A stretch of DNA of 64,000 nt from NCBI GenBank assembly GCA_005772955.1, contig SXID01000149.1:22594-86593 (forward strand), written 5' to 3'. Positions within the stretch are counted from its first letter, which is position 1. Each line of letters opens with the position of its first letter. Position numbers and translations under genes: made by a program. This document shows, in pieces, positions 4,676 to 49,255 of this stretch. Below the pieces are notes generated by a model. The model saw only the letters and a program-made list of their open reading frames with translations. It searched no databases and had not been told where the DNA came from. The DNA is from Planctomycetia bacterium. Lineage in GTDB: Bacteria > Planctomycetota > Planctomycetia > Gemmatales > Gemmataceae.

Positions 4676-5032
4676 ATGCCGACGCAGTGTGATACGCTCA
4701 TTCGCCTCGTGTTGCGCGACGAGGCGATGACCCGCGGATTAGGTGACATCGAGGCGCGGATGTTGGTCGAATGGCTCGCGGACTGGACCGAACTGCTCTC
4801 GGACGCGGCCCGCTCCGAGGACGACGCGTGGTCGTGCGTCGAGAGATTGTGCCGACGCGGGCGAGCCATCGGCCGATTCGTGCAACTGTGGGGCGACCCA
4901 TTCGACCGCGGTGCCGCAATCCAACTGGCCGCGTCCGAGCGGTTCGACTGGCCACTCCCGGCCAACGACATGGACCCCGGCGACCTCATGCACCACATCC
5001 TGACGTGGGAGAATCAGCACCCCGGTGCATAA
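4676..5032 (+). CDS. Hypothetical protein, 118 aa, upstream of the adaptor operon
   Basis: ATG 4676 within ORF 4307-5032; coding-like composition (MPTQCDTLIRLVLRDEAMTRGLGDIEAR...). Confidence 0.65.
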   Translation: MPTQCDTLIRLVLRDEAMTRGLGDIEARMLVEWLADWTELLSDAARSEDDAWSCVERLCRRGRAIGRFVQLWGDPFDRGAAIQLAASERFDWPLPANDMDPGDLMHHILTWENQHPGA

Positions 5033-5055: not shown

Positions 5056-5175
5056 GGGGCGTTTCAAAGTAGTAGGCACACTCCGTGTGCCGTTGTTACG
5101 TGAGTCAGAACCGCCAAACGTTCTTGAGTTGCGAAGCGACGGCACACGGAGTGTGCTGCTACTTTGAAACGCCCC
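5056..5175. repeat. 120-bp inverted-repeat element (REPIN/MITE-like) built from GTAG-type REPs
   Basis: Ends GGGGCGTTTCAAAGTAG / CTACTTTGAAACGCCCC; inner GTAGGCACAC-TCC-GTGTGCC hairpin and its near reverse complement. Confidence 0.85.
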
Positions 5176-5282
5176 GATCGAGGGGCGAACTTGCCCCCTT
5201 CGCCGTTTCTGAGGTATGATCCTCAGGACGCGGCTAATCGCGCCCTCCGGTTTGCTCGGTGTAACGCAGTACGAGGTTCCCC

Positions 5283-7532
5283 GTGAGTACAACCCCAACC
5301 ACCGCGCCCACCCCACAATCTTCCGGTGGTGGCGACGCCGCCCGGACCAAGTACGCACGCCAGATCGAAGACGCCTTCGAGTCAGCCGGGAAACTGGCCG
5401 GCTCTGCGCTGGCACCCACCGACTTCTACCAGCAGTTCCTGAACCGCACGCTTTCGGCCATCGACGCGCCCGCAGGCGCCGTGTGGCTCCGCACGCCGCA
5501 AGGCTTCCTGCAACTCGCGTGTCAGGAGAACATCGACAAGGTTGGACTGGACGCGCGCCGCGGCGCGCGTCAGTGCCACAACGAGGTGCTGCGACAGGTG
5601 TTCCAGGCCGCGCCGCCGCGCCCGGTGCTGTTGGAGCCGAACGGGCGCATGGCCCCCGGTCCCGGCGAACCTGGGCCTGTTCCGCCCGCCAACCTCACCG
5701 ACCACTTCACGCTCTTCGCCCCGATTGTTACGCCCGACAAGCAGGCGCTCGGCATCCTCGAAATCTTCCAGGATGCCACACACGACCCGCGCCTGTACCC
5801 CACCTTCTTGAACTACACGTTCCAGATGGCCGGGTACGCGAGCCAGTACCACAGTTTCAGCAACGCCCGCATCGCGGCCGGCGTCGAGAAGACGTACGCG
5901 CAAGTCGAATCATTCGCTCGACAGATCCACAGCAGTTTGAACCCCACCGAGGTGGCGTACCACGTCGCCAATGAGGGACGTAAACTGATCGAGTGCGACC
6001 GATTGTGCGTCGGGATTCGCCACGACCGCTACCGCGTCACCGTCGAATCGGTCAGCGGGGCCGATGTGGTCGAGAAGGCCAGCACACACGTCCGCTCGCT
6101 GCGCCGGCTCATGGAAGCCGTGTTGCAGTGGGGCGAACCGCTCACGTTCAAGGGCGAGAAGGATCCCGGGTTGCCCGCGGCTGTCGCTCACGCGCTCGAC
6201 GACTACCTGCACGAGAGCCAGCCGAAGTTGCTCATCGTGCAGCCGACGCGCGACGAGCGCGAGAAAGACATGACCAAGCCGGCCCGCGCCATACTGGTCA
6301 TGGAGTGCTTCAACCCACCAGAACAAACCGAACCGCTGCTCCAACGGCTCGACGTGGTGACCAAGCACGCGGCACCGGCGCTGTACAACGCGGCCGAACT
6401 CAAGCGTGTCCCGCTCAAGTTCCTGTGGTGGCCGATCGCCAGGGTTCAGGAGGGTCTCGGCGGCAAGCGGCGGTTCATCGCCGCGTCGATCGCGCTACTG
6501 GTCGCGGTGCTTGTGGGCGTGATGGCTGCGCCGCCGTCGATCCCCCCGTTCGGCGCCCAGTTGAGAATGGAGGCGAAGGGCCAGATGCTGCCCGTCGAAA
6601 TCGCCAAGATCTTCCCGCCACGCGAAGGTGTGGTGAAGGAGGTCCGCGCCAAGCCGGGCCAGCAGGTCGATCCCAACTTTGAACTCGTCGCCTTGTACAG
6701 TGAGTCGCTAGCCGACGAGTACAACCGGGCGCGGAGCGAGTGGAACGAACAGAGCAGTTTCGTGTCTGAATACACGAAACAGCTCCAAACCAACCTGAGC
6801 AAGGAAGACCGGAACCGCGTCTCGGCCGACAAGACCGTTGCTGAGGGCCGAAGCAAGAAGGCACAGGGCGACATGGAGGCGCTCGACCAACAGTACAACA
6901 AGGTGAACAACAAGCCGAACAGCAAGGGCCAGGCAAACAATTCCGGCCCCGGCCACTTCCGCGCCATTGCGCCGGACTTCGACACCAGACTTGCACGCGA
7001 ACTCGGCCGCTCGCGATGGACCGTGCTCAACGACGACCGACGCGAGAGCCTGCTCGGGCGAACCATGCGACCCAACGAGGAGATGCTTCGCATCGGCAAC
7101 CTCGAAGGCGCGTGGCACATCGAACTGAAGATCCCGCAGCGCAATGTCGGGCAGGTGCTCAGAGCCTTCGCGGACCCGAAGAAGCACCTGATCAACAAAG
7201 ACCCGGTGAAGGGCGACCGCAAGTTCCTCGACGTGGATGTGCTATTGTCGAGTCAGACGGACACGAGTTATACGGGCCGTCTGTACCGCGATGACATCGC
7301 CGCCGAAGCGGTGCCCAACAAGAACGAGCACGACGAGAACGAACCGGTCGTGACCGCCTACGTGAAGTTGAACGTGAAGGGGATCGACGAAAGCCGGTGG
7401 GTGCCGCGGAACCACTTCATCACCGGACTTGAGGTTCGCACCCGGATCCGCTGCGGCGAACACGCACTCGGCTACACGCTCTTCCACGGCGTCTGGGAGT
7501 GGTTCTACGAGAAGGTCGTGTTCTTCTTCTAA
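5283..7532 (+). CDS. GAF-domain protein fused to an HlyD/membrane-fusion-like adaptor module
   Basis: N-terminal GAF-like regions (AGAVWLRTPQG; ECDRLCVG), one TM helix, biotinyl-lipoyl-like 'GVVKEV..KPGQQV', coiled coil, beta-barrel 'WHIELKIPQRNVGQV'. Confidence 0.75.
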   Translation: MSTTPTTAPTPQSSGGGDAARTKYARQIEDAFESAGKLAGSALAPTDFYQQFLNRTLSAIDAPAGAVWLRTPQGFLQLACQENIDKVGLDARRGARQCHNEVLRQVFQAAPPRPVLLEPNGRMAPGPGEPGPVPPANLTDHFTLFAPIVTPDKQALGILEIFQDATHDPRLYPTFLNYTFQMAGYASQYHSFSNARIAAGVEKTYAQVESFARQIHSSLNPTEVAYHVANEGRKLIECDRLCVGIRHDRYRVTVESVSGADVVEKASTHVRSLRRLMEAVLQWGEPLTFKGEKDPGLPAAVAHALDDYLHESQPKLLIVQPTRDEREKDMTKPARAILVMECFNPPEQTEPLLQRLDVVTKHAAPALYNAAELKRVPLKFLWWPIARVQEGLGGKRRFIAASIALLVAVLVGVMAAPPSIPPFGAQLRMEAKGQMLPVEIAKIFPPREGVVKEVRAKPGQQVDPNFELVALYSESLADEYNRARSEWNEQSSFVSEYTKQLQTNLSKEDRNRVSADKTVAEGRSKKAQGDMEALDQQYNKVNNKPNSKGQANNSGPGHFRAIAPDFDTRLARELGRSRWTVLNDDRRESLLGRTMRPNEEMLRIGNLEGAWHIELKIPQRNVGQVLRAFADPKKHLINKDPVKGDRKFLDVDVLLSSQTDTSYTGRLYRDDIAAEAVPNKNEHDENEPVVTAYVKLNVKGIDESRWVPRNHFITGLEVRTRIRCGEHALGYTLFHGVWEWFYEKVVFFF

Positions 7533-7622
7533 GTTGCGAGGTGTGAGGTGCGAGGTGCGAGTTGAAAGCACAAAACCGGCGATTGCTTTCACCTCGCAGT
7601 TCGCAACTCTGAACTCGCAACT
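7532..7622. repeat. Heptamer-periodic inverted repeat
   Basis: AGTTGCG AGGTGTG AGGTGCG AGGTGCG ... CGCAGTT CGCAACT CTGAACT CGCAACT directly after the stop codon. Confidence 0.8.
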
Positions 7623-7719
7623 TCCCCAAAGTCCCGCCTCCCAGCGGCCGGCGAGCGCCGGACCCCGGTGGCACCCACGCTACAACCCCTCGTCCCCTTT
7701 TTGACTAGAGGACAACGTC

Positions 7720-9786
7720 ATGCGCTCGCGTGTACTCGCGTTCTGGTGCCTTCCGACCGTACTCGCCGCCCTGCTCATCGGCTGCGGACCCAAACCCAAC
7801 CCGACAGGCGACAAGCCCGGCACCCCCGAACTCGCCGTCCCGGTCAAGACTGGTAGCCCGCTGTACGCGGCGGCTGCGCCGCTGACGTACGAGGCGCAGG
7901 CCGCGAGCGGCGAACCGTTGGTGATCCCGAACTGCGTCGTACAGTATGAGGAACGGCAAATCGTTTCGGCCGAGGTGGACGGCACCATCGAATTATTCGC
8001 CACCGGGTTCAAGCCCGGCGAGTACGAGAAACTGACTGACGCGCAGAAACGCGAGTGGGTCATCTACCACCCGCGTGACCCAAACCCGAAGAATCCGACC
8101 CCCCTGAAGCGAATCCGCGAGAGTATGCCCGTCGATGCGCGGCAGGTGGTCGCGTTCATGGACGACCAACTCGTCCAGGCGCGCCTCGACGGAGCGCAGA
8201 AGATCAAGGACTCGGCGATCAAGGCCAAGGAGAACGCCACTACGGGGGCGAATGCTGCCAAGAAGAAATACGAGATCACCTTGAAGGTGTACGGCGACCA
8301 ACTCACCAAGGAGGTACTCGACGACCTCATCACGCTCAGCCGGTTCCTTGAGAACCTCGACCAGGCGACCCAGCAGATCGCGAAGTCCGAGGCGGACTAC
8401 AAGGAAGCACAAGTGTTGATCGGCCGGCACCAGGTCAAGAGCGGCGTGGACGGCACCATTCGCACCATCTCCAAACGCCCCGGCGAGTATGTGAAGGCCG
8501 GCGAGAAGATCATGGAAATCGAGGGCACCGACAAGGTGCGGATCGAGGGCCAGATCGACGTTCAGTACTTCGCGCAAGTGCGCGAACACATGCAGAACAA
8601 CAAGGACGTGATTATCGAGCCGGCGCTGCCGAGTGCGCCGGAAGCATCGCACACGGGACACCGTCAAGCGGTCACCGGCGTCGCGGTCACCGCGCACCCG
8701 GACGGCCCGCTTGTCGTTTCCGCTGGTGCCGACGGCGGCGCGCTGGTGTGGGATCCGAACCTGGGTAAGAAACCGAACCGCCCGGCGGTTCCGCACAATC
8801 TGCCGCACCCGGTCGGCGTGAAGTGCGTTGCCGCGACGCCCGCGACCTCGAAAGCCTCACTCATCATCACAGGGGCCGACGACGGCAAAGTCCGCATTTG
8901 GGACGTGTCGAACCGCGACAAACTCCCAACGACACCGAGAGCGGAACCGGACGACGCGCACGCGTCCGCGGTTCAGGCAGTCGCGATTAGCCCGGATGGA
9001 CGGCACTTCGCCACCGCCGCTGGGCGCGACGTGTTCGTGTGGGAAGTCGCGACCGCGAAGAAACTCTATTCGCTTGCGCTGGAACACCGCGACTCGGTCA
9101 CGTCCGTGAGTTTCACCCCCCAAAACACGCTCATCACCGCGTCGAAGGACGGCACCGTCAAGGTGTGGAAACTCGGCACCGAACAGGCTGCCGTGGTTCG
9201 CACGCTCGACCACCGGGCCGGGGCCATCGACGTGCTCGGCGTCAGCCGCGACGGCGCGCGTATGCTCTTCGACCAGGACAAGGCCCGCGTGGACTTGGTT
9301 GATCCGGCGACCGGGCAGACTGTGGGGCAGATCCAGAACGGCGGCTCGGCCGGTTCGTTCTCCACATTTGCCGTGTTTGGCCCCGACGAGGTGGCGCCTG
9401 GTACTGATGCGGCGAAGGTGCCTTACACCATCGCAACGGCTGGCGGCGACGGCGACCTCAAAGGCGCTCTCCAAGTGTGGCAATCGCCCCGCACCGGCGG
9501 GCGCGGAGCGGAAGTGGGACGGCTCATCACCCCCAACCGCACGCCGGTAACGGCTATTGCGTTCAGCCCGGTTCGTGGCGAGCAGTTCCTCGTGGTCGGC
9601 ACCAGCGCCGGCTCCGTTCACCTGTGGAAGCCCCCGACCCAGGCGCCCAAGGCGTACAAGGGACGGATCGTGAACATCGACGCGGCCGACACCAAGTACG
9701 TCACGGTTCGCGTCGAGATGGACAACCGGGAACTCCGGCTCCTTGACCACAGCATCGCCAACGTCATCATCGCTTCGGAGAAGTAG
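7720..9786 (+). CDS. Lipoprotein HlyD-family periplasmic adaptor with an internal WD40 propeller
   Basis: Lipobox LLIGC; 'VSAEVDGTI' and 'VKSGVDGTI...PGEYVKAGE' lipoyl halves around a coiled coil; about seven WD40 repeats ending WD/WE/WK. Confidence 0.8.
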   Translation: MRSRVLAFWCLPTVLAALLIGCGPKPNPTGDKPGTPELAVPVKTGSPLYAAAAPLTYEAQAASGEPLVIPNCVVQYEERQIVSAEVDGTIELFATGFKPGEYEKLTDAQKREWVIYHPRDPNPKNPTPLKRIRESMPVDARQVVAFMDDQLVQARLDGAQKIKDSAIKAKENATTGANAAKKKYEITLKVYGDQLTKEVLDDLITLSRFLENLDQATQQIAKSEADYKEAQVLIGRHQVKSGVDGTIRTISKRPGEYVKAGEKIMEIEGTDKVRIEGQIDVQYFAQVREHMQNNKDVIIEPALPSAPEASHTGHRQAVTGVAVTAHPDGPLVVSAGADGGALVWDPNLGKKPNRPAVPHNLPHPVGVKCVAATPATSKASLIITGADDGKVRIWDVSNRDKLPTTPRAEPDDAHASAVQAVAISPDGRHFATAAGRDVFVWEVATAKKLYSLALEHRDSVTSVSFTPQNTLITASKDGTVKVWKLGTEQAAVVRTLDHRAGAIDVLGVSRDGARMLFDQDKARVDLVDPATGQTVGQIQNGGSAGSFSTFAVFGPDEVAPGTDAAKVPYTIATAGGDGDLKGALQVWQSPRTGGRGAEVGRLITPNRTPVTAIAFSPVRGEQFLVVGTSAGSVHLWKPPTQAPKAYKGRIVNIDAADTKYVTVRVEMDNRELRLLDHSIANVIIASEK

Positions 9787-9897
9787 CGAGCAATGTGTGG
9801 CGAGTGACGAGCAAAACCTGATCGCGGGCTTTGCTCGTCACTCGTCCTCCTCGCTCGATTTCTCCGACTCGCAACTTGTCACTCGCTACTCGTGACT
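9783..9897. repeat. Heptamer-periodic inverted repeat
   Basis: AGTAGCG...AGTGACG AGCAAAA / TTTGCT CGTCACT ... CGCAACT TGTCACT CGCTACT. Confidence 0.7.
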
Positions 9898-9905
9898 GTT
9901 TTCAC

Positions 9906-12167
9906 ATGGCCAACGACCTGATCACGAACCTGAACAGCCCCGCGGAGCGCCGCAAGCAGGTGCGGCTGCGCGTGCGCCCCGACCTTCAGGCGTTCGAGCA
10001 GAAGTACGAGGGGAAGACGTTCACCGTCATCAAGGATCCGGTGTGCCTCCGGTACTACCGGTTCAGCAAGCAAGAATACTTCGTGTTCCAGTTGTTCGAC
10101 GGCAAACACACGATGGAAGAGGTGCAGAAGCAGTTCGAGGAAGAATTCAAGCCGATGCGGTTAGAGCAAGCAGACCTGGAGGGTTTCGCGCGTCAACTGG
10201 TGACCGCGGGTCTGGTGCAGAACGAACAACCCGGTGCGGCGCAGCACCTGTTTCAACGGCGTGCCAAGCAGCGCCGGATGCGCCGGCTCGCGACCTTCTC
10301 CAACATCCTGTACCTCAAGATTCCGGTCTTCGACCCGGACCGACTGCTCACGTGGATGTTTCGCTACCTGTCGTGGATCTTCACGCTGTGGTTCTTCGCG
10401 CTCAGCGTCGGGTTGATGATCGCGGCAGTAGTTCACGTCACGCTGCACTTCAACACGTTCCAGGCGAAGTTGCCGGCGTACCAGGAGTTCTTTACGTGGA
10501 ACTCCGTGCTCTACATGTGGCTCTCACTCGGCGTGGTGAAGGTCATCCACGAGTTCGGGCACGGGTTGAGTTGTAAAGCGTTCGGCGGCGAGTGTCACGA
10601 AATGGGCATCTTGCTCATGTGCCTCTCGCCGGCGCTCTACGCGAACGTGACCGACGCGTGGACACTGGCCGACAAGTGGAAGCGGATCATCATCAGCTTC
10701 GCGGGCATCTACGTCGAGTTGGTGATCGCGTCCATCGCCACGTTCGTGTGGTGGTACACGCCCGCGTACCCCACCGCGAACAACATCGCGCTGTGTATCA
10801 TGGTGCTGTGTTCGGTGTCCACCGTGATGTTCAACGCGAACCCGTTGATGCGCTTCGATGGTTACTACATCCTCGCCGACTGGTTGGAAGTGCCGAACCT
10901 GCGCGAGAAGGCTACCAAGTTCCTGAACAACCTGTTCCTGTCGAAGTGCCTGGGCGTCGAGGTGCCGCCGGACGCGTACATGGCCCCGGGGCGCAAGTGG
11001 CTGTTCGTGATCTACGCGATCGCGAGTTGGGTGTACCGGTGGGTGGTGACGTTCAGCATTCTGTGGTTCCTTGCCGACTTCATGGGTCCGAAACTCAAAA
11101 TCCTGAGCCAGATGTTAGCGATCATGTCGCTGGCGTCGCTGTTCATCTGGCCGGGATACAAGGTGATCAAAAACATTCGTCAGCGCGGGCGGTTACCAGA
11201 CATGAAAGCGGCGCGGGTGCAGATCACCCTCGGTGTGTTCGGGTTGTTGCTCCTGGGGTTCTTTTTCCTGCCGTTGCCGGTGAGTCGGGTCCACGAGACG
11301 GGTCTGGTCGCGGTCGATCCCGACCACTTTGAAGGCGTGCTGCTGGCGGAACCGGCGCGTCTGGTCGCGATCGAAGACGTGGGACCGGGACAGAATGTGC
11401 GCCGCGGGCAAACGCTGGCGACCTTCAAGAGCGAGACACTGGAGGTCGAACTGGCGAAGGCGCAGTCGATCAAGAACGAGCAGTGGCTAACGGCGGGGTT
11501 GCTGAACGCTTCCGCGATCAAGGCACGCGGTGCGGGAGACACGGCGGCCGAACAGCGGTTCGCGGCGGAGTACAAGAAGGCCCGCGCGAAGGCCGAAACT
11601 GCCGCTGACGAAGTAACACGGTTGCTCGCCCGCCAGAACCGCTTGCGCGAGTTGAAAGCCCCACGCGACGGAGTTCTCCTCACCACGCCAAAGCGCGACG
11701 ATGTCGGCAAACTCTTCGACAAGGGTTACGCCGAAACGGCCCCGGTGTTCACGGTGGGCGACCTGGGCCGGCTGATTCTGAAGGTGCCGGTCAGCCCACC
11801 GGACTTCCGCGTGCTGAAGGACGACCTCGCGGTGTACGGCGAACTGGACGTGTCGGTGTGCGCGAAAGGCCGGAGCGACCGTACGTTCAGCGGGAAACTC
11901 CGCAGGTTGCCGGCACAGAACGCGGCCACGGTGCCGCTGGCGCTGACGCAACGCGGCGGAGGATCGCTCGCGGTCAAGCCGGGCGACGACCCGAACGTGC
12001 TCATCCCGCTGGCGCAGGTGTATCTGGTGGAAATCGCGATGACCGACCCGGACCTGACCATCGATCCCGGTCAACTCGCGATCGTGAAGATCCACGCCCG
12101 CTGGCGTAGTAGCGCCTGGTGGGTCGGCCGCGCGCTCTCCAACTCGCTCGACATCGGGCTGTATTGA
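9906..12167 (+). CDS. Site-2 (M50) metalloprotease fused to an N-terminal PqqD-like domain and a C-terminal HlyD-like adaptor
   Basis: HEFGH zinc motif, NANPLMRFDG (NxxPxxxxDG), multiple TM helices, 'LKAPRDG' lipoyl half and beta-barrel. ATG at 9906. Confidence 0.85.
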   Translation: MANDLITNLNSPAERRKQVRLRVRPDLQAFEQKYEGKTFTVIKDPVCLRYYRFSKQEYFVFQLFDGKHTMEEVQKQFEEEFKPMRLEQADLEGFARQLVTAGLVQNEQPGAAQHLFQRRAKQRRMRRLATFSNILYLKIPVFDPDRLLTWMFRYLSWIFTLWFFALSVGLMIAAVVHVTLHFNTFQAKLPAYQEFFTWNSVLYMWLSLGVVKVIHEFGHGLSCKAFGGECHEMGILLMCLSPALYANVTDAWTLADKWKRIIISFAGIYVELVIASIATFVWWYTPAYPTANNIALCIMVLCSVSTVMFNANPLMRFDGYYILADWLEVPNLREKATKFLNNLFLSKCLGVEVPPDAYMAPGRKWLFVIYAIASWVYRWVVTFSILWFLADFMGPKLKILSQMLAIMSLASLFIWPGYKVIKNIRQRGRLPDMKAARVQITLGVFGLLLLGFFFLPLPVSRVHETGLVAVDPDHFEGVLLAEPARLVAIEDVGPGQNVRRGQTLATFKSETLEVELAKAQSIKNEQWLTAGLLNASAIKARGAGDTAAEQRFAAEYKKARAKAETAADEVTRLLARQNRLRELKAPRDGVLLTTPKRDDVGKLFDKGYAETAPVFTVGDLGRLILKVPVSPPDFRVLKDDLAVYGELDVSVCAKGRSDRTFSGKLRRLPAQNAATVPLALTQRGGGSLAVKPGDDPNVLIPLAQVYLVEIAMTDPDLTIDPGQLAIVKIHARWRSSAWWVGRALSNSLDIGLY

Positions 12168-12188
12168 GAACATCTGATCGCGTAGCCG

Positions 12189-12328
12189 AGCATCTTCGAG
12201 TACATCGAAGCGTTCTACAACCGCGTCCGGCGCCACTCGTCACTGGGGTACGTTGCCCCAGACGAGTACGAACGGACGCATAACCAAACCCACCGCTAAA
12301 CACTGTCCACCATTCGTGGGGAACTCCA
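12189..12328 (+). mobile_element. IS3-family remnant (transposase C-terminus plus right inverted repeat)
   Basis: 12189-12299 encodes [28 protein letters not shown]...*, with an in-frame stop just upstream; followed by CTGTCCACCATTCGTGGGGAACTCCA ending in CA. Confidence 0.85.
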
Positions 12329-12388
12329 GGTGCCGGTTCAGGGTGTCGAGCATCCGTGCCGTCCTTCGCGATCCCCTTCGGGACGCGG

Positions 12389-13321
12389 CTAACTGAGAAG
12401 TGTCTTCTGCCACTCCACCTGTCGTGCTAAACCGGCGTCGATGCTCGTCGTTGGCTTCCATCCCAAATGGCGGAAGAGTTTCGTCACGTCGGCACCGGTC
12501 GCGAGTTGGTCGCCGGTGCGCGGCGGGTGGCGTTCGATGATCGCCGGCTTCCCAATGATGCGCTCCAGCTTCTTGAACACCTCCAGCACCGTCACCAGTT
12601 CGCCGCCGCCGAGGTTGAAGGTTTCGCCCGGTGTCGCCTGCGTCGCGCGGATCGTCGCTTCCACACAGTCCGCGATGTAGGTGTTGCCGCGAACCTGCAA
12701 TCCGTCGCCGGTGAGTTTAATGGGCTTGCCTTGAAGGATCGCATTGATGAAGAGGTGGTAGCCCATCTCCGGGCGCTGACGCGGGCCGTACACGCTGAAG
12801 TACCGCAGCACCACGGCCGGCACGTTCCACTCGTCGCAGTAGACGCGACACAGTTGCTCCGCGGCGAGCTTCGTGATGCCGTACGGCGAACTCGGGCGAG
12901 TCGGAAGCGATTCGTCGCCGCTCGCGTACTTGCCGTACACGGAAGAAGTGCTCGCGTAGATCACACGTTTCAGCGTGGGCGAACCCTTCAGCGCTTCGAG
13001 CAGCTGGTGCGTAGCAGTAAGGTTGTGGCGGTTGTAGCTATCGAAATCCAACCAGCTTCGCGTCAGCCCGGCCATCGCCGCAAGGTGGAACACCCACTCC
13101 GCGCCGCTAGCGACTTCAGCGGGCACGCCCTGCGACAGATCGAGTTCGCGGAACTGGAAGTGCGGGTGCTTGCGAAGATCCGCGAGGTTCCGCTCTTTGA
13201 TGGGTCGTGGGTAGTAGTCGGTGAAGCAGTCGATACCCGTGACCGCGTGACCGTCCGCGAGCAACCGCTCGCACAGATGTGAGCCGATGAACCCGGCCGC
13301 GCCGGTAACGATGCAACGCAT
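12389..13321 (-). CDS. NAD-dependent epimerase/dehydratase (extended SDR, nucleotide-sugar 4-epimerase-like)
   Basis: TGAAGFIG, STSSVYG, YGITK, LRYFSVYGPRQRP. Confidence 0.9.
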   Translation of the reverse strand: MRCIVTGAAGFIGSHLCERLLADGHAVTGIDCFTDYYPRPIKERNLADLRKHPHFQFRELDLSQGVPAEVASGAEWVFHLAAMAGLTRSWLDFDSYNRHNLTATHQLLEALKGSPTLKRVIYASTSSVYGKYASGDESLPTRPSSPYGITKLAAEQLCRVYCDEWNVPAVVLRYFSVYGPRQRPEMGYHLFINAILQGKPIKLTGDGLQVRGNTYIADCVEATIRATQATPGETFNLGGGELVTVLEVFKKLERIIGKPAIIERHPPRTGDQLATGADVTKLFRHLGWKPTTSIDAGLARQVEWQKTLLS

Positions 13322-13384
13322 GGTAGTCCCCCACGGGAGACTCTATCAGGTTGAGGAACGCGGTCGCAAGCCCGACCCTGGAAC

Positions 13385-13479
13385 AGTCGCGAGTTGCGAA
13401 TTGCGAGCGAAAGTCCAGCGGCCTTCGTTCTCGGGTCTTCTGCTCGCAACTCGCAACTCACCACTCGCAACTCACTTCT
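13385..13479. repeat. Heptamer-periodic inverted repeat
   Basis: AGTCGCG AGTTGCG AATTGCG ... CGCAACT CGCAACT CACCACT CGCAACT. Confidence 0.8.
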
Positions 13480-13885
13480 ACTCGTACAGGTCCACGAAGA
13501 ACTTGTTCCCGTCGTTCTTGAAGACGTACTTGTGGGCGACTTCCCAGTCATGAGCCGGGGCCGCGTTCTTCTTTAGCTTGTACGTGATGAAGAACGGTTT
13601 CTGCTTCGGGTCAAACTCCGAGTCGAACTTGAAGTGGAACTCTGGCGACTTGTTCTCGTTGGCCTTCGCGTAGGTGTGCCAGTGGAGCCGCTGTTCGCCC
13701 GGCTTCTGCGTGGCGTTGTGCCACGGGTCGTTGCCCCACATGTACTGATACGTGATCGTGTTCGTGCTCGAGTCCTCGATGCCGGTCACCGCGAACCGGT
13801 TCAGGGCGGATGTCGTGCCCGGGCTGAGCATCGTGGCGGCGATTGCGACAAGGGGGCGACCAGAGCGAGCAGTCTTGTGCCTCAT
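13478..13885 (-). CDS. Small hypothetical, probably secreted, protein
   Basis: 135-aa ORF with aromatic/Lys-rich beta-like composition and a weak signal peptide. Confidence 0.6.
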   Translation of the reverse strand: MRHKTARSGRPLVAIAATMLSPGTTSALNRFAVTGIEDSSTNTITYQYMWGNDPWHNATQKPGEQRLHWHTYAKANENKSPEFHFKFDSEFDPKQKPFFITYKLKKNAAPAHDWEVAHKYVFKNDGNKFFVDLYE

Positions 13886-16126: not shown

Positions 16127-17629
16127 TCACGGCCCCGCGCTTGCGCGCTTCCAGGCTGCATCGAGCGCCTGCGTACTCTCGATGCCGTACTGCCGCTTCA
16201 GCGCCTGCGCGGTGCCATAGCGTTGCGCATCGCTCAAGAAGATCTTGAAGTTCCGCTCGCCGTTCAACTTGATGAGGTACTCCGTCACGCTCACGCTCTG
16301 ACAGTAGAAGCCGGTGATCTTGTCGCTGGGGAAGTCCTTCAGGTCGAAGAGCGTCGCGAGGTTCCGCAGTTCGCCATCACGTGCGCATCGCGGGAGCGTT
16401 CGCGTGTAGCGACTGATCTCCTCCGGCGAACCCGCGAGGATCGCCATGCCTTCCAGCGCCCATTTCGGCGGCGGCTTGTCCGCGAACAAGTCCGCGAGAA
16501 CAACGTGCGTGAGTTCACGCGGCAGCGTGTTCGTTACCATCGCGGTGTCATCGGCACGGAGGTCGATGCGGCGTTCCGTCGCACGCCCGTTGGTCAGCTG
16601 CACGCTCGCGTGTCCGGTGAACCCGGCTGGCTTGCGCGTTGCCTTCGCGTAGGCGGCGGCGGTTGGGTGAATCACAATGTCGCACTTCGCTTGCCACGCG
16701 CCTCCAGCCGGGCCGCTCCACCGCTCGAAGATCTGCTTGCGGTTCGCTTCGGCCGCCTTCGCGACCGCGTCGCCGAGTGTGCGGTCGCCGCCGTGATACA
16801 CGCGGAAGCTCGCAGATTCGATCATGTCGCCGTTTGCCGTGACCGGGGCCACCGCCTTCGCGGTGCCTGCCTTCGCCTGAGCAGCCTTCAACAGTTGCTG
16901 ACCCACCTTCTGAAGTTCCGCGTTCCGCGGAACAAGCTGCAACGCTTCGGCCACGTCCCGCACCACTGTGGCAGCAGTGGTGGCGTCACAAGTCGGCGAG
17001 TTCACGCGATCCGCGGCGAGTTTGATGCAGCAGTACGCCCACGCGGTCTTCTGCTCCGCAGTGAGTTTCGCCGAACCGATTGAAGCAAACAAACGGTCCG
17101 CATCCGCGTAGTTCGCCTTCTTGAACGCGGCCACGGCATCCGCCGCGAAGTCGTTCTCTGGCTTGGCGAGCGGGGGCTGTAAAGCCCCCGAGGGAACAAC
17201 CAACGACGGCCCCAGGTTCGGTTCCGGCAGCGTCACGGGAACGGTATTGGCGAGCGAAGGCTGTGAAGCACCTGTTGCGACCGGGCCTCCGAGCAGTGAG
17301 AGCTTGCGCCGCGTTTGGGCGATGCGTTCCGGTTCGGCAACTGGTGTTTTTTCGAGCCGGTAGAGTTCGGCGAGGTAGGCTTCGCGAAGCAGCGTGAGGT
17401 ACGTCTTGCTGCCGTCCGCGTTCGACACTTCCTTTTCGAGCGCCGCGACCGCTTCGGCCGGCAGTTGCGCGTCGAGGTATTTCCTTGCCGACTCCATCGC
17501 GGACTGCACCGCGAGGTGTTTCTCGACCGGTGAGGGGTCGGCGGCGGGCGCTAATGGCGTAGCGAGAAGAACGCCCGTGAGGGCGAGAGCGGTCGCGGAG
17601 CGGAGCATGGTGGCTGGCATCCTTGCCAT
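16127..17629 (-). CDS. Secreted protein with helical N-terminus and peptidase MA-like domain (RExxH variant)
   Basis: Signal peptide; TLPRELTHVVL...PKWALEGMA; FYCQS. Confidence 0.7.
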   Translation of the reverse strand: MARMPATMLRSATALALTGVLLATPLAPAADPSPVEKHLAVQSAMESARKYLDAQLPAEAVAALEKEVSNADGSKTYLTLLREAYLAELYRLEKTPVAEPERIAQTRRKLSLLGGPVATGASQPSLANTVPVTLPEPNLGPSLVVPSGALQPPLAKPENDFAADAVAAFKKANYADADRLFASIGSAKLTAEQKTAWAYCCIKLAADRVNSPTCDATTAATVVRDVAEALQLVPRNAELQKVGQQLLKAAQAKAGTAKAVAPVTANGDMIESASFRVYHGGDRTLGDAVAKAAEANRKQIFERWSGPAGGAWQAKCDIVIHPTAAAYAKATRKPAGFTGHASVQLTNGRATERRIDLRADDTAMVTNTLPRELTHVVLADLFADKPPPKWALEGMAILAGSPEEISRYTRTLPRCARDGELRNLATLFDLKDFPSDKITGFYCQSVSVTEYLIKLNGERNFKIFLSDAQRYGTAQALKRQYGIESTQALDAAWKRASAGP

Positions 17630-17717
17630 GTAGCGGCGAGTTGGGCGATTCGCGCCCGCCGCGGGGACGGCACTCTATACGCAGACACGCGAAGTGAGAC
17701 AAGCCCGATTGAGCGCA

Positions 17718-17811
17718 GAGGGGGAGGGCCGAAAGGGTGAAGGGGAGAGAAGACAAGAGCACGGCGGCTTTGTCCTCTCTCCCCTTCACCCATTCGGCAC
17801 TCCCCCCCTCT
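17718..17811. repeat. Purine/pyrimidine-skewed inverted repeat
   Basis: GAGGGGGAGGGCCGAAAGGGTGAAGGGGAGAGA...TCTCTCCCCTTCACCCATTCGGCACTCCCCCCTC. Confidence 0.7.
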
Positions 17812-18719
17812 TACTTCTTCGCCGCCGGTGGCGCAGTTGCCACGCCCAGAATCTTGTCCAGTTCCAACTTGATCTCCTTCGCTCCGACCGACTTCATGAT
17901 AGCCGCGTTCGCCTTGTCCAGAAGTTGCTTCTCCAGGTCCGGCTTGACGACCTTCACCATGTCGAGCACGAAGTCGCCCGCATTTTTCGCATCTTCACCG
18001 TCCAGACCGGCGGTGTGGTCGATCGTGATCTTGTCGTGGAACAGTTTCGCGTCCGTCACCTTGATGAAGAGCGTGACGTTCGGGAAAAACGAACCGGGCA
18101 ACTTCTCCGTCTTGGTCGTCACCTCGACCTTCATCATCAACCCCGCCTTGCAGTGGCCGCGAGTTTCACCGGAATAGAGTTGGTGACCGCGCTTCCAGAG
18201 TTGGTGTTCGACGCGGAAGTCGATCTCCATTTCCACGTGCAGTGTGAGGTTCGCGGTTTCCGCGGTGGGCTTGGTGAGTTCGGGAATGCCCACGGCCAGC
18301 GTGTCAGCCGGCTTGAGTCCTTGCACGGTGATGCGCCGCCAGAGGCCATCGTTGACCATCTGCCGCGGCACTTCTGGCCCGAACTTCTTTGGACTGCGCA
18401 GCATCAACGCACCGACGACGAACTCCTTCTGGTTCCCCCAGCCGTCGTTAGATTGGACGAGCGGGTTGGGGAAGTTCGTGAGCATCAGCGCGCGGAGCGT
18501 TTTGGCGAACGCCGCTGCTTCCGCCTCCGTTGGCTGCGCGACGCCCCTTGGCGTCTTCAGCGGGAGGGGCGTCGGCGTTTGCACCGGTGCCGCCTTCGGC
18601 ATGGGGTTGGGCAGCGGAAGCGGGATTGGCTCCGGGTCCGGTGGCTGCGCGGACGCCGACGCGATCAGCAGCGCACCCAGAATCGCGGTCGTGGCGTACC
18701 GAATCATGAAAGACCTCAT
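17811..18719 (-). CDS. Hypothetical secreted protein
   Basis: Signal peptide (AILGALLIASASAQ), Pro-rich linker, coding-like composition. Confidence 0.7.
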   Translation of the reverse strand: MRSFMIRYATTAILGALLIASASAQPPDPEPIPLPLPNPMPKAAPVQTPTPLPLKTPRGVAQPTEAEAAAFAKTLRALMLTNFPNPLVQSNDGWGNQKEFVVGALMLRSPKKFGPEVPRQMVNDGLWRRITVQGLKPADTLAVGIPELTKPTAETANLTLHVEMEIDFRVEHQLWKRGHQLYSGETRGHCKAGLMMKVEVTTKTEKLPGSFFPNVTLFIKVTDAKLFHDKITIDHTAGLDGEDAKNAGDFVLDMVKVVKPDLEKQLLDKANAAIMKSVGAKEIKLELDKILGVATAPPAAKK

Positions 18720-18821
18720 GTCGATCAGGAGTTCCAAGTGCCAAGTCAAAACCAAGAGCGACCCCAACCTCCGCCTTCTGTCTTCAACTTGGAACCTGGA
18801 ACTGCAGGAACTTCTCCGCTG

Positions 18822-19748
18822 TCAGGTCGCGGCCTTCAAGGTGCGTTCGATGTACGTTCGGACCTCGTCCACGGCCACGCCGGTCGCGACCCTGGCGTTC
18901 GCCGCGGACGTGCGACCCGGTCGCGTGTCGATCACCGTCATGCCGCGAGTCAGGTCGCCTCGCGTCTCCACATCCACATAATGCGGCTCGCTGCTCACGC
19001 ACCCGGCGAGCGCGACCGCCACCACGCCGAGTACGTCCTTCAGGTGGAAGCCCTCGATGCCATACAGGTTGGAACTCGCGCGGATGCCGAACGGGACGAT
19101 CTTACGCAGGAACTGACACGTCCGCGAATCCGGGTTCGGCAGGTCGAGAAGGTCACGCGGGGAGAAGATCAACTTGCGCGTGGAATCGAGCGTAATGAGC
19201 AGCGGGTTCAGGTCGGCGGCAAGAACACGCCTGGCCGCGTCCGGGTCGAGGCGCATGTGGAATTCGGCGACCGCCCCGGCGTTGCCGGGTTCGCGCCAGC
19301 ACCCGCCGATGATTACCGTCTGGTCGAGAATCGCTGGCAGAACTGGGTCGCGGTCGAGCGCGGCGGCGAGCGTCGTGAGCGGACCGAGGTTGATCACCGT
19401 AACTTGTCGCGGGTACTCGTGAGCCAGTTCGCAGAGCAACTTGTCGGCCAGGTGAAGCGTGTGCCGCGTCGCCGACGGGAACGTTACGCCGCCCAATCCG
19501 CCGGGGCCGTGAAGCGAGGTGCCGTCGGAGTCGTAACGCACCGGCAGCGCGGCCCCGAGTTTGGGCCACTTGGGTGGGTCGATGACATCGATGAGCGTGT
19601 GAACGTTGGCGGTCGCCTGTTCCGCGGACACGTTCCCGGCGGTGGGCAGCACGCCGACCACTTCGAGGTTCGGATCGTTAAGTGCGAGCGCCACCGCGAA
19701 CGCCGTGTCGATGCCCGGATCGGCGACGAGGATTACCTTTCGTGGCAT
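18822..19748 (-). CDS. Nucleoside hydrolase (IU-NH) family protein with a degenerate Asp motif
   Basis: ADPGIDT, GNV, LGPLTTLA, MGG-like IIGG...GNA..VAEF, VETRGDLTRGMTVID. Confidence 0.85.
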   Translation of the reverse strand: MPRKVILVADPGIDTAFAVALALNDPNLEVVGVLPTAGNVSAEQATANVHTLIDVIDPPKWPKLGAALPVRYDSDGTSLHGPGGLGGVTFPSATRHTLHLADKLLCELAHEYPRQVTVINLGPLTTLAAALDRDPVLPAILDQTVIIGGCWREPGNAGAVAEFHMRLDPDAARRVLAADLNPLLITLDSTRKLIFSPRDLLDLPNPDSRTCQFLRKIVPFGIRASSNLYGIEGFHLKDVLGVVAVALAGCVSSEPHYVDVETRGDLTRGMTVIDTRPGRTSAANARVATGVAVDEVRTYIERTLKAAT

Positions 19749-19886
19749 GTTGTCGGTTCCCCGCTAGGGAAAGGCGAGAGGCGAACCGCAGGCGAAACGT
19801 CGGTGAATTGTACCCACACGCCACCACAACGCGAAACCTGTTTGTTAGGAACGGGTCGGGAATAAGTTCTTGGTTATGGTGAGCGT

Positions 19887-20017
19887 GCAAAAGCCACCCC
19901 TCTCCCCGAAGCGGGGCGAGGTGAAAAACCCGACCCGCAGGCTCTTCACCTCTCCCCGTGAAGCACGGGGAGAGGTCGCCACGAAGTCGCGCTTCGCGAC
20001 TTGCGGTGGGTGAGGGG
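19887..20017. repeat. CCCTCTCCCC...GGGGAGAGG hairpin cluster (related palindromic family)
   Basis: CCCCTCTCCCCGAAGCGGGGCGAGG and CACCTCTCCCCGTGAAGCACGGGGAGAGG in the trpD downstream spacer. Confidence 0.65.
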
Positions 20018-20054
20018 CCGCGCGACCAACCGAGATGCGATTCGCCCAGTCGCT

Positions 20055-21077
20055 TCACTTCGCCTTCAGCGCGTCCAGCACCGCGAGCGGCTTGCCCGCC
20101 TTCAACGCGGCTTCCGCTTTCTCCACGCCCTCGCGCAACGTGGATACCGCTTCCGCGGCCCACAGAGCTGCCGCCGCGTTCGCCACCACGATGCGCCGCG
20201 CCGGGCCGTCGTCGCCGTTCAGCACCCCGCGAATGATCGCGGCGCTTTCGATGGAATCCTTCGCGCGAATCTCGGAAGTCAAGACAGAGGAAAGGCCGAA
20301 CTCCGACGGGTTCCACTCGCGGGTTTCGTACGTGTTGCCCCGCACGACCCGCACCATCGTCGGGGCCGCCAAACTCACTTCGTCCAGCCCGTCGCGGCTA
20401 CACACCAGAACCGCTTGCCGAATCCCCAAATGCGCGAGCGCCGCTGCAAGAGGGTCCAACAACTCAGCTTTGCCCACACCAAGAAGTTGGTACGGTGCGT
20501 TGGCCGGGTTCGCGAGCGGACCCAACAGGTTGAACAGCGTGCGAACACCGAGCTTCTTTCGGAGATCAGCAACGTGAGCCATGCCGCGGTGAAAGTGCGG
20601 GGCGAAACAGAACGCGAACCCGGTGCGGTCGAGGCACTTTTGCGCCCACTCCGGGCCGGCGTCGATCGGAACGCCGAGTTCGCGCAGCACGTCCGCGCTG
20701 CCGGACTTGCTCGACACCGCACGACCGCCGTGCTTCACAACCGGTACACCGGCACCGCACGCGACCAGCGCTGCCGCGGTGCTGATGTTGAAGGTGCCGC
20801 TGTCATCGCCGCCAGTGCCGCAGGTGTCCAGCACCTGCCCGGACACGGGCACAAGGCAAATCATTTGTTCGCGCAACACGAGGGCCGCCGCCGCGACTTC
20901 TTCGGCGGTTTCGCCCTTCATGCGAAGCGCGGTCAGGAACGCGGCGCCGCGAGCGTCGTCCACGCGCCCTGCGACGAGGTCGCGCACTGCCTCCGTGACC
21001 CCTGCCGCGGACAGGTCTTGCCCGGCCAGCAGAGCCGCGAACAGGTCGGGAAACCAGGCTGGGGTCGGTAACTCCAA
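20055..21077 (-). CDS. trpD: Anthranilate phosphoribosyltransferase
   Basis: DTCGTGGD..GTFNIST, KHGGRAVSSKSGSAD, RTLFNLLGPLANP, GLDE. Confidence 0.97.
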   Translation of the reverse strand: MELPTPAWFPDLFAALLAGQDLSAAGVTEAVRDLVAGRVDDARGAAFLTALRMKGETAEEVAAAALVLREQMICLVPVSGQVLDTCGTGGDDSGTFNISTAAALVACGAGVPVVKHGGRAVSSKSGSADVLRELGVPIDAGPEWAQKCLDRTGFAFCFAPHFHRGMAHVADLRKKLGVRTLFNLLGPLANPANAPYQLLGVGKAELLDPLAAALAHLGIRQAVLVCSRDGLDEVSLAAPTMVRVVRGNTYETREWNPSEFGLSSVLTSEIRAKDSIESAAIIRGVLNGDDGPARRIVVANAAAALWAAEAVSTLREGVEKAEAALKAGKPLAVLDALKAK

Positions 21078-25602: not shown

Positions 25603-25693
25603 GGTGTGAACCTGATGATGGTACACGACCCCTGCGGGGTCGCCGCAAAACGTCGTGGTATTTCAGTTGTACCTGTTTCGTTGTGGTGCCGCC

Positions 25694-35141: not shown

Positions 35142-36428
35142 TTAGCGGGTCGGGTCGAGGACGCGACCCATGAACAGCACGGTCCCGGTCGGCTCATGCT
35201 TGATGACGAACACGAACGGGTGATCCGCGCGAAACTCGTTGACCAACGCCGGCTCCGGTCCCGCTGCGGACCGCCCGAACATCACGACCGCCGTGGCCGC
35301 AGCCGCCTCGGTGCCCTCTTCGTCAAGTTCCACGAACGCCTTGTGAATCACGCGGCCGATGTACAGTCCTTCGGGGTGTTCGGTCATTCCCGTGAAGTTC
35401 GCTTTCGACGCGTCGAACGCTTCCTTCATCCCCATCTTTTGCAGCGTGGTCGCGAGTTCGGTTGGCACGCTGAACTTGAATTTCGGTAGCCACACCTTCG
35501 CCTCGACAAGCGGTGACTTCAGCGGACCGCGTGTCCACTTCGCGATGTTCTCGGCGGTCAACTGCTGCTCCAGCGCGGGCAATCCGTCGGCCGTTCGCGG
35601 GAGCAGCACATACATCGAAGCGGGGCCATTGTAAGGCAATCGCAGCACCTGAAGCCCGTCCAGTTCCTGAAGCCAGAATTCGCCCTTCTGATGCATGAGT
35701 GGCGTTTGAATCTTCTGACCGGTGGCGAGCGTGAAGTCTTCCGGCCGGGTGTTGGTCTTCTTGAACGCTTCGGCCCAGCGCGCCTTGAAGTAGATCGCGT
35801 TCGCGACGACGAGGCGTGTGTTGCCGCTGATGCCATCGGGTGGAACCAGATCCTTGATGTGATCGCGCGTCTGGTTCTCGACCCACTTGTTGATGCGCCC
35901 GCGTGCGGCTTCCGGTTCGTGAGCGAAGTCCGCCCCGGATAACGTGGCGCGGAAATCGTGCTGCGCGAGCGCCAGGTACTCTTTCTTCCACGAATCACCC
36001 TTCTGGAGCCACAGCGAGTTGGCGACGAGCAGTTCCGACGTCATCACGCTCTCCTTACCTCGGCCGCTCCACACGCTCGCTCTCGTGCCGTTGGTCATCG
36101 CGCCGTACGCGGGTCCGACCTTCGCGCCGGGCGGTAGGTGCAACACCGATTCCATCTCCGTTCGCGTGTTCCCCTGTGCCCCAGCCGCAGTCAGTGAGAG
36201 CGCGGCGCTCACGCTGTACGGCGAGACGATCAGGTTCCCGTTCTCGGTTCGGAGTTGGCCGTAGAGATCGGCGGCGAACGCATTGACGCCGTCAGCCGCG
36301 ACCTTCGCAGTCTTCGCGTCCTCGGAAGTGTTGGGCCGCGAGGTAAGTGGCGGAAGCGGGGAAGGCAGCGTACACGCGACCACCGCCAGAAGCGCAACTG
36401 GCACCAGCGCGACGCGCAGGCGAAGCAT
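35142..36428 (-). CDS. Serpin (probable lipoprotein)
   Basis: SPYSVS, NAIYFKARW, HKAFVELDEEGTEAAAAT hinge, FRADHPF.F.I......LF.GR. Confidence 0.95.
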   Translation of the reverse strand: MLRLRVALVPVALLAVVACTLPSPLPPLTSRPNTSEDAKTAKVAADGVNAFAADLYGQLRTENGNLIVSPYSVSAALSLTAAGAQGNTRTEMESVLHLPPGAKVGPAYGAMTNGTRASVWSGRGKESVMTSELLVANSLWLQKGDSWKKEYLALAQHDFRATLSGADFAHEPEAARGRINKWVENQTRDHIKDLVPPDGISGNTRLVVANAIYFKARWAEAFKKTNTRPEDFTLATGQKIQTPLMHQKGEFWLQELDGLQVLRLPYNGPASMYVLLPRTADGLPALEQQLTAENIAKWTRGPLKSPLVEAKVWLPKFKFSVPTELATTLQKMGMKEAFDASKANFTGMTEHPEGLYIGRVIHKAFVELDEEGTEAAAATAVVMFGRSAAGPEPALVNEFRADHPFVFVIKHEPTGTVLFMGRVLDPTR

Positions 36429-49228: not shown

Positions 49229-49255
49229 GCGGAGTCCTTCCAGAAAGAGCAGAAG

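Follow-up and report, generated by a model that had tools for sequence, protein, structure and literature searches.

Three membrane-fusion genes with a site-2 protease in a Gemmataceae genome: candidate core of a type-I-like secretion apparatus for large leader-bearing surface proteins

Background

What is the task of three consecutive membrane-fusion (adaptor) genes that stand together without a pump? The question is raised by a 64,000-nucleotide stretch of DNA (here called the window) from a Planctomycetia bacterium of the family Gemmataceae (GenBank assembly GCA_005772955.1, contig SXID01000149.1, positions 22,594 to 86,593, forward strand), in which three genes on the plus strand each join an HlyD-type adaptor module to a different partner: GAF-like domains in gene 1, a WD40 propeller in the lipoprotein encoded by gene 2, and an RRE/PqqD-like domain with an M50 (site-2) metalloprotease in gene 3. 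A first-pass annotation, made from the letters of the window, had proposed that the three products build a trans-periplasmic conduit. Here, we analyze the domains of the trio, its conservation and its gene neighbors in relatives, and we consider it somewhat more probable than not that the trio provides the core, in membrane and periplasm, of a type-I-like machinery for secreting large leader-bearing surface proteins, in which a SecA-like motor and a site-2 protease replace the ABC transporter.

A module of this composition is already in the literature. Kamneva, Poudel & Ward (2015, PLoS One; PMC4452313) describe secondary SecA_DEAD proteins without the wing/scaffold domain, encoded in conserved neighborhoods together with GAF/HlyD, HlyD/biotin-lipoyl and peptidase M50-like proteins. 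They propose a secretion-related function in which the SecA-like protein would be the ATPase and the pore in the membrane might be the M50 protein. The paper also states that module partners can be encoded elsewhere, that the biological role is 'completely unknown', and that the module occurs in Verrucomicrobia, Nitrospirae and Chlorobi; its supplements gave no text match for Gemmata. The window trio is placed in this module because GAF plus HlyD, separate HlyD/biotin-lipoyl and M50 plus HlyD proteins are all present, and it is a published but uncharacterized module. The earlier remark that no mechanistic description was known thus stands for functional work, since our literature searches found no functional study of the module, LEPR-XLL, DUF3467, DUF4347 or SecA/M50/TolC combinations, and does not stand for the module itself, which had been described with the SecA-like protein proposed as its ATPase.

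Domain architecture of the trio

The three open reading frames (ORFs) were confirmed on the plus strand at 5283-7532, 7720-9786 and 9831/9906-12167, and their fusion to GAF-like domains, to a WD40 lipoprotein and to a PqqD-like domain plus M50 protease, as first annotated, was borne out by Pfam, by Foldseek comparison of AlphaFold2 (AF2) models and by orthologues. For gene 3, the start is most likely ATG 9906 and not TTG 9831, because homologues align from that methionine. The features of the trio are as follows.

5283..7532, plus strand: gene 1, protein with two GAF-like domains, a transmembrane segment and an adaptor, 749 aa
5400..6401, plus strand: gene 1 cytoplasmic region with two GAF-like domains (~residues 40-195 and 204-373; GAF matches in homologues, AF2 for the second domain only)
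6465..6533, plus strand: gene 1 single transmembrane anchor (hydropathy scan, residues 395-417; AF2 helix 395-415)
6552..7529, plus strand: gene 1 periplasmic adaptor with lipoyl domain, alpha-hairpin 474-538, beta-barrel and aromatic C-terminal helix (Foldseek)
7720..9786, plus strand: gene 2, lipoprotein adaptor with inserted WD40 propeller, 688 aa (Pfam, signal peptide)
8635..9654, plus strand: gene 2 WD40 beta-propeller within the adaptor beta-barrel domain (PF00400, 101 bits; many propeller families)
9906..12167, plus strand: gene 3, RRE/PqqD-like domain, M50 (site-2) metalloprotease, transmembrane anchor and adaptor, 753 aa
9960..10223, plus strand: gene 3 cytoplasmic RRE/PqqD-like domain, residues 19-106, with invariant R24, K43 and P45
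10338..11186, plus strand: gene 3 M50 transmembrane core (PF02163, 38.5 bits), with HEFGH at 10548-10562 and NANPLMRFDG at 10833-10862
11283..12164, plus strand: gene 3 periplasmic adaptor module, hairpin 510-581 (Foldseek, profile)

Both motifs by which site-2 proteases are recognized were found in gene 3, HExxH as HEFGH at residues 215-219 (inside helix 198-225 of the AF2 model) and NxxPxxxxDG as NANPLMRFDG at residues 310-319. Across 59 relatives, down to 29% identity, H215, E216, H219, N310, N312, P313 and D318 are invariant, as are the three residues listed for the N-terminal domain, and the adaptor hairpins are highly variable. To judge from these motifs the protease is catalytically intact, as had been claimed in the first-pass annotation. 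The cytoplasmic and membrane parts of gene 3 are its most constrained parts, because the protease and N-terminal residues are invariant and the hairpins are not. In the AF2 model (pLDDT 85), the N-terminal domain is a small beta-sheet (strands 20-53) followed by helices (55-100) at pLDDT >80. Its profile matches are weak, with E 0.0046 to PF05402 (PqqD), which is below the cut-off, and, for the family profile, E 0.006 to the lasso-peptide RRE TfuB1 and E 0.1 to PqqD. A further transmembrane anchor at residues 435-454 leads into the C-terminal region 460-753, which matches AcrA and MacA in Foldseek at E ~1e-12 and the MacA profile at E 5e-19.

In gene 1, the Pfam HlyD matches are sub-threshold (E 0.0025-0.019), and residues 424-749 of the AF2 model match AcrA, MacA, MexA and ZneB in Foldseek at E 1e-10 to 1e-9. 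Pfam did not detect GAF in the window protein itself, and the assignment is made because its homologues and orthologues match: of 30 close homologues, 20 match PF01590, and two GAF domains, at ~40-170 and ~205-350, are seen in orthologues of the Bremerella-like and Isosphaeraceae-like loci. Confidence in the AF2 model is high for the second alpha/beta domain (204-373), and residues 1-203 are poorly modelled. The fold searches were run with whole models and are dominated by the adaptor halves, so that the GAF, RRE and M50 folds are not separately confirmed against the PDB.

The gene 2 protein carries a signal peptide with the lipobox LLIG|C22 and matches HlyD_3 (35.9 bits) and HlyD_D23 (32.3 bits), both above cut-off. 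Its propeller occupies ~residues 306-645, and the adaptor resumes in the final 43 residues. Outside the Gemmatales the Pfam-scored orthologue is a plain adaptor of 300-350 aa; the WD40 domain is limited to the long form of 650-820 aa, which is found in the loci that resemble the window most closely, the majority of them with Gemmataceae labels. The WD40 insertion is Gemmataceae-specific.

The trio is a conserved unit in Planctomycetota

Searches with gene 3 returned 12,267 representative relatives at E <= 0.001, of which 4,025 reach E <= 1e-30, and most of the best of these share a length of ~740 aa. A gene 3 scan over one genome per species gave at least 571 encoding stretches, the best 80 of which are the planctomycete loci considered here; nearly all come from bins labelled Planctomycetota, and three carry labels of other phyla. 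After clustering of the ORFs, 63 loci had enough upstream DNA to be informative. Upstream of the gene 3 homologue, and in the same order as in the window, a gene 1 homologue was found in 54 of these, a gene 2 homologue in 58 and both in 53. The trio is a conserved unit, not a remnant or an orphan. No ABC or RND neighbor is conserved in the 80 loci; an ABC-like ORF directly after the trio in one metagenome-assembled genome (MAG; L004) and scattered ones in four other loci are unconserved and were treated as chance. Neither was an anti-sigma/sigma pair found conserved beside the module in the planctomycete loci.

What does recur is a truncated SecA paralog of ~670-730 aa, which adjoins the module in nine planctomycete loci. 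In Pirellulales-type loci its position is upstream of gene 1, and in the Gemmataceae MAGs L002 and L011 it is downstream of gene 3, which makes two independent arrangements. The protein contains SecA_DEAD, the preprotein cross-linking domain (PPXD) and the second nucleotide-binding domain (NBD1-PPXD-NBD2), and because it aligns solely to residues ~14-604 of solved SecA proteins it is without helical wing, two-helix finger and C-terminal tail. Many Gemmataceae have the short SecA, Limnoglobus roseus and Fimbriiglobus ruber among them. The stand-alone paralog of L. roseus (L082) overlaps the start of a family-less 504-aa multi-pass membrane protein (12054-13568), and 4.4 kb downstream of the paralog a 1,405-aa FG-GAP protein (16515-20732) has an R-rich N-terminus followed by LEQLDDRLAPA, a sequence that looks like a Gemmataceae variant of the leader described below.

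Two further neighbors were repeatedly observed. DUF3467 proteins of ~100 aa occur in 22 planctomycete loci, in most of which they immediately adjoin the module, as a rule behind gene 3 and ahead of gene 1 in four loci; a PDB profile search with DUF3467 gave nothing meaningful. In L030, L037, L050, L051, L071 and L076 the SecA-like gene has a divergent gene for a BBP7 outer-membrane beta-barrel upstream of it. BBP7 is a candidate outer-membrane partner, confined to SecA-adjacent Pirellulales-type loci (by the labels in record titles), for which shared ancestry may be the explanation. TolC was not detected near the planctomycete loci by tblastn with proteobacterial queries; the Frigoriglobus locus has an OEP-like gene at its edge. 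Near the module in seven planctomycete loci there are large ORFs whose R-rich N-terminus is followed by LExLExRxLLA. In four of these loci the ORF is the next or next-but-one gene, and in L050 it is co-oriented and immediately follows DUF3467.

Large or giant genes adjoin the module in Proteobacteria, with a common leader in those read

A tblastn search with gene 3 against plasmids and chromids gave 84 records, and 12 loci were inspected. In 10 of the 12 the module is immediately preceded by the end of a large or giant gene in the same orientation, with products of ~1,200 to 16,000 aa where complete lengths are available. These cargo-like genes are as follows.

Azospirillum: ~1,200-aa DUF4347 protein, then a 1,175-aa Ig-like protein
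Phyllobacterium: 1,412 aa, HrpK-domain protein
Thalassospira: 4,030 aa
Methylosinus: 8,850 aa
Mesorhizobium: 10,500 aa
Pontibrevibacter: 10,600 aa
Pseudosulfitobacter: 12,900 aa
Variovorax: 16,200 aa

Two further ones are unannotated ORFs of >2,500 aa that run off the fetched stretch. The remaining two loci are that of Magnetospirillum, with a 492-aa repeat protein upstream, and that of Rhizobium, which lies at the start of its record. All seven cargo N-termini that were read carry a leader of 25-50 basic residues followed by [LMI]E[PA]R[FVILY][LM][LF][SDN]A[DA], the core common to all seven being the basic stretch plus [LMI]E[PA]Rx[LM][LF]. Examples from the cargo genes are MEALEPRFLLSAD, MALEPRFMFDAAG and MALEARYMFDAAA, a further leader peptide is KMEALEPRFLLSADP, and a planctomycete example is RLEALEDRRLLA. 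The LEPR-XLL model NF012209 matches one of the seven N-termini, and the records of two others carry a LEPR-XLL annotation (PGAP). The Pseudosulfitobacter cargo has RTX repeats, and the trio there includes a 620-aa adaptor with a GAF domain and a short 260-aa adaptor.

The truncated SecA gene directly follows the M50 gene in seven of the 12 proteobacterial loci, and the paralog is 46% identical between a planctomycete and an alphaproteobacterium. Its annotations vary between 'prepilin peptidase', 'DEAD/DEAH box helicase', 'hypothetical' and none. The following genes are truncated SecA genes that RefSeq plasmid records annotate as 'prepilin peptidase' or 'DEAD/DEAH box helicase'.

L085, 12041-14065: identified by an NCBIfam match to SecA of 585 bits
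L091, 12189-14105: confirmed by tblastn
L090, 12085-14070: confirmed by tblastn
L095, 12132-14093: confirmed by tblastn

TolC adjoins the module in five of the 12 loci, DUF3467 in five and SapC in one; SapC is known from the S-layer type I operon of Campylobacter. No ABC or RND gene lies in the module operon of any of the 12, and a type I secretion permease/ATPase pair (ABC plus HlyD) in Phyllobacterium stands on the opposite strand, 3 kb away.

These loci bear on several points of the first-pass annotation. Its suggestion of profiling for co-occurring TolC and substrates was productive, with TolC and large or giant co-oriented upstream genes sharing one leader motif in the proteobacterial loci. 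The consistent ABC or RND partner in homologous operons that it had set against its own hypothesis did not appear in either set of loci. Its statement that no ATPase, RND or TolC gene is in the locus is accurate for the window ORFs that were scanned and does not carry over to the system, in which the truncated SecA recurs. Its conduit hypothesis is supported in part, the conjectural parts being the M50 protein as the inner-membrane conduit, cleavage of the leader by it, and regulation by the GAF domains.

A proposed mechanism

We propose a working mechanism that builds on the domain folds and motifs, on the conservation of the trio, and on its synteny in relatives with giant leader-bearing genes and with those for SecA-like, DUF3467 and TolC proteins. 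The N-terminal leader of the cargo, that is, the basic stretch with the [LMI]E[PA]RxLL-type motif that NCBIfam models as 'LEPR-XLL', would be docked by the M50 protein through its cytoplasmic RRE-like domain. The truncated SecA paralog (NBD1-PPXD-NBD2), presumed to be encoded elsewhere in the genome of the window organism, would supply ATP-driven threading, and the intact site-2 protease core would remove or release the leader at the inner membrane. The three adaptor modules, two membrane-anchored and one a lipoprotein, would interact to form a single hetero-oligomeric periplasmic tube leading outward to an outer-membrane channel, which would be TolC in the proteobacterial versions, and the tandem GAF domains could gate the machine on a small cytoplasmic ligand. 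Candidates for the inner-membrane conduit are an oligomer of the M50 protein, SecYEG or another protein. The outward direction of transport is something that we infer from the neighboring genes.

A more specific form of this proposal is that the module is a distinct, so far unnamed secretion system, in which the RRE-M50 protein recognizes the LE[PA]RxLL leader, the wing-less SecA drives transport, the three-adaptor tube leads to TolC or another pore, and DUF3467 is an accessory that the 118-aa protein encoded upstream of gene 1 replaces in Gemmataceae, where its IEARMLV stretch may mimic the leader; the whole would be a housekeeping route of planctomycetes for large surface proteins. We give this form somewhat less than an even chance.

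Several observations weigh against the secretion proposal. Among the scanned window ORFs (Pfam on the flanking ORFs and on 20 larger ORFs elsewhere, a selection and not a full annotation of the 64 kb) no ABC, RND, TolC or SecA gene was found, tblastn of the window with SecA-like, DUF3467 and BBP7 queries gave no match, and neither the window nor the Gemmataceae loci hold a cargo-like ORF with the leader motif, so that of the proposed machine the window holds only the trio and the small gene. For the Gemmata/Frigoriglobus clade a SecA-like gene is putative, none being present in the 22 kb around the Frigoriglobus trio, and the SecA-like gene of L. roseus has no trio gene within 10 kb. The seven-locus count of planctomycete leader ORFs has no genome background and so carries no significance for enrichment. 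A subset of the proteobacterial loci (Azospirillum, Magnetospirillum and Variovorax) carries TolC and cargo and no SecA-like gene that could be the energy source. No inner-membrane protein-conducting channel was identified for the module, and no site-2 protease is known to conduct polypeptides. Efflux adaptors that dock to TolC carry a conserved RLS-type motif at the hairpin tip; by-eye inspection of the three hairpin tips revealed no recognizable motif of this type, and the hairpins are short, with tips among the least conserved parts of genes 1 and 3. Finally, LEPR-XLL giants could exit by a classical ABC type I system, because those of Vibrio are reported to carry C-terminal RTX/serralysin domains (PMC10868602).

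Alternative explanations

This last point leads to the alternative in which the module retains, releases or quality-controls its clients. The giants would leave C-terminus first through a classical ABC type I system, the RRE-M50-adaptor assembly would hold the leader, and GAF-controlled intramembrane cleavage would release the adhesin, by a logic analogous to LapD/LapG-LapA. The C-terminal domains reported for the Vibrio giant (PMC10868602), the RTX repeats of the Pseudosulfitobacter cargo, the type I pair close to the Phyllobacterium module, GAF domains that suggest second-messenger control, and a protease known as a cutter and not as a channel all point this way. An ABC transporter is nonetheless missing from the module operon of the 12 proteobacterial loci and is not conserved in the 80 planctomycete loci, and a SecA-like motor, three adaptors and TolC exceed what a release switch needs; we regard this reading as unlikely. 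Regulated intramembrane proteolysis, with the M50 protein cleaving a membrane-tethered regulator on envelope or GAF cues and the adaptors as mere scaffolds or sensors, would give the family its usual role, since M50 proteases are best known from signaling (RseP, SpoIVFB); GAF domains are sensory, and the scanned window ORFs held no transporter, cargo or outer-membrane partner. Such a role leaves three full adaptor folds unexplained, no anti-sigma/sigma pair is conserved alongside, and in other phyla the syntenic genes (for TolC, SecA-like and giant leader-bearing proteins) are indicative of transport, which makes signaling distinctly improbable.

The profile matches of gene 3 raise a different possibility, namely maturation and export of small peptides that are made by ribosomes and modified after translation (RiPPs) or of bacteriocins, with the RRE-M50 protein as the leader peptidase, as in the daptide and YydF pathways, and the adaptors serving an unlinked ABC exporter. 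The best NCBIfam match is the daptide intramembrane metalloprotease NF041824 (180 bits), followed by YydH/LiaK NF058609 (52 bits, below cut-off), and the N-terminus is RRE-like. The daptide score is far under the family cut-off of 300, however, and the ~90 loci have no conserved precursor peptide, modification enzyme or ABC exporter, the neighbors being proteins of thousands of residues and not peptides; unlike accessory RiPP clusters, the module is present in hundreds of species-level genomes and has numerous close relatives within Planctomycetota. We hold this explanation to be very improbable. The same low standing is given to ordinary drug or metal efflux adaptors served by an ABC, RND or MFS pump encoded elsewhere, with incidental fused domains: their closest structural matches are indeed AcrA, MacA, MexA and ZneB, in line with the public efflux-adaptor annotation, but three different adaptors always occur together and never with a pump, the fused protease and RRE domains have invariant residues, and the synteny is with cargo, SecA-like and DUF3467 genes. 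A defense-system reading was dropped, PADLOC having returned only a generic WD40 match.

The upstream gene, the spacers and the rest of the window

A small gene, which the first-pass annotation had not noted, directly precedes the trio on the same strand, and each spacer around the trio genes holds an inverted repeat.

4676..5032, plus strand: conserved 118-aa acidic helical protein without signal peptide, upstream of the trio in 13 Gemmataceae-type loci
5056..5175, no strand: long nested inverted repeat in the spacer between the small gene and gene 1, arms 20 nt (95% complementary) and 32 nt (81%)

Conservation of the 118-aa gene is confined to those 13 loci, and the protein occupies the position that DUF3467 has in other lineages. 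It had no match in Pfam, NCBIfam, PADLOC or a PDB profile search, and the idea of a diverged DUF3467 was rejected, as hhalign gave a probability of 0.2% between the two families. Its best-conserved stretch, GDIEARMLVEW, lies ~25 residues from the N-terminus and resembles the leader core LE[PA]RxLL; the protein may, speculatively, be a ligand of the gene 3 RRE domain. The inverted repeats of the three spacers (5056-5175, 7531-7623 and 9801-9844) have arms of 18-40 nt that are 81-95% complementary. They are not classical terminators, because none is followed by a T-run, and may be mRNA-processing or stability elements or repetitive extragenic palindromic (REP)-like repeats. A sigma-70-like site was found at 5191-5220, and the promoter and terminator scan was otherwise uninformative.

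The window has a G+C content of 61-65%, its proteins have their nearest relatives in Gemmata, Frigoriglobus and other Gemmataceae, and its DNA was matched in freshwater metagenome runs only. The trio is flanked by unrelated genes, an acyltransferase/AMP-binding gene and an epimerase, both on the opposite strand, then a cytochrome c gene. Just 3′ of gene 3, at ~12180-12300 on the plus strand, a short open frame looks, by eye, like the C-terminal end of an IS3-family transposase, which would be an insertion-sequence remnant. Further away, a full-length bacterial serpin (35142-36428, minus strand; PF00079, 376 bits) lies amid hydrolase genes, namely a peptidase S46 (23482-25626), an S9-like gene, a phospholipase B-like gene and an amidase. 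At 47429-49315 (minus strand), a homologue of apolipoprotein N-acyltransferase (Lnt) suggests that the organism is able to make triacylated lipoproteins such as the gene 2 product. At 53788-57495 (plus strand) a PSCyt2/PSD1 (DUF1549/DUF1553) gene is followed by a DUF1501 gene, a pairing of unknown function that is common in planctomycetes.

Significance

Only about ten secretion systems are recognized, and every addition to them has changed the study of adhesion, biofilms and host interaction. The module studied here is widespread, its encoding stretches being spread over Planctomycetota and Proteobacteria, and public annotation hides it by mislabelling the SecA-like and M50 genes. As far as the searchable literature shows, our additions to the 2015 description are the link to LEPR-type leader-bearing giants, DUF3467 as a cross-phylum member, the RRE-like domain with its invariant residues, and the systematic misannotation of the SecA paralog. 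The link to cargo and leader turns a vague 'secretion-related' label into a system that can be approached experimentally. If the proposal is true, the LEPR-XLL domain, DUF3467 and the Gram-negative 'SecA2' would each gain a function, a site-2 protease and an RRE domain would be at work outside signaling and peptide natural products, and the export of very large planctomycete surface proteins may be explained.

Comparison with known systems

In its proposed working the module comes nearest to the type I systems for giant adhesins and to the peptidase-containing ABC exporters with their HlyD partner. The window trio resembles the module of Kamneva and colleagues in its three protein types, in phylum and in having no ABC transporter. 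Lineage-specific features set it apart: a middle adaptor with a WD40 insertion, a gene for a 118-aa partner in front of the trio, and the lack, in cis, of genes for SecA-like and DUF3467 proteins, the former being absent from both the locus and the 64-kb window. The accessible text of PMC4452313 does not mention an RRE/PqqD-like domain, giant-protein cargo or DUF3467.

With the tripartite efflux adaptors AcrA, MacA and MexA the trio shares the lipoyl, alpha-hairpin and beta-barrel fold, and public records call the adaptors 'efflux RND transporter periplasmic adaptor subunit' and label the M50 gene 'PqqD family chaperone' or 'efflux adaptor'; the trio differs in having no cognate pump, in its fusion to GAF, WD40 and M50 domains, and in its unconserved hairpin tips. 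The RiPP leader metalloproteases (daptide NF041824, YydH/LiaK NF058609) have the same N-terminal RRE-like plus M50 architecture and motifs, whereas gene 3 scores below their cut-offs, has an extra transmembrane anchor and a 290-aa adaptor module, and has no RiPP genes nearby. Peptidase-containing ABC exporters (CvaAB-TolC, bacteriocin exporters) likewise couple recognition and cleavage of a leader to an adaptor and TolC route, but the protease of the module is an intramembrane zinc M50 enzyme and not a C39 cysteine domain, its ATPase is SecA-like and not ABC, and its presumed cargo measures thousands of residues and is not a peptide.

The type I systems for giant adhesins (HlyBD-TolC, LapBCE-LapA) are similar in their HlyD/MacA-fold adaptors, in the TolC that adjoins the module in some relatives, in the giant, repetitive and partly RTX proteins encoded alongside, and in a logic that spans the envelope in a single step. 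Of the components by which type I systems are recognized, the HlyD-family adaptor is present as three adaptor folds, and the defining ABC transporter was not found in the scanned window ORFs and is not conserved in the homologous loci. In its place the module has a truncated SecA and an M50 protease, and it differs further in having three different adaptors where type I systems have one, and in a conserved signal that lies at the N-terminus of the cargo and not at the C-terminus.

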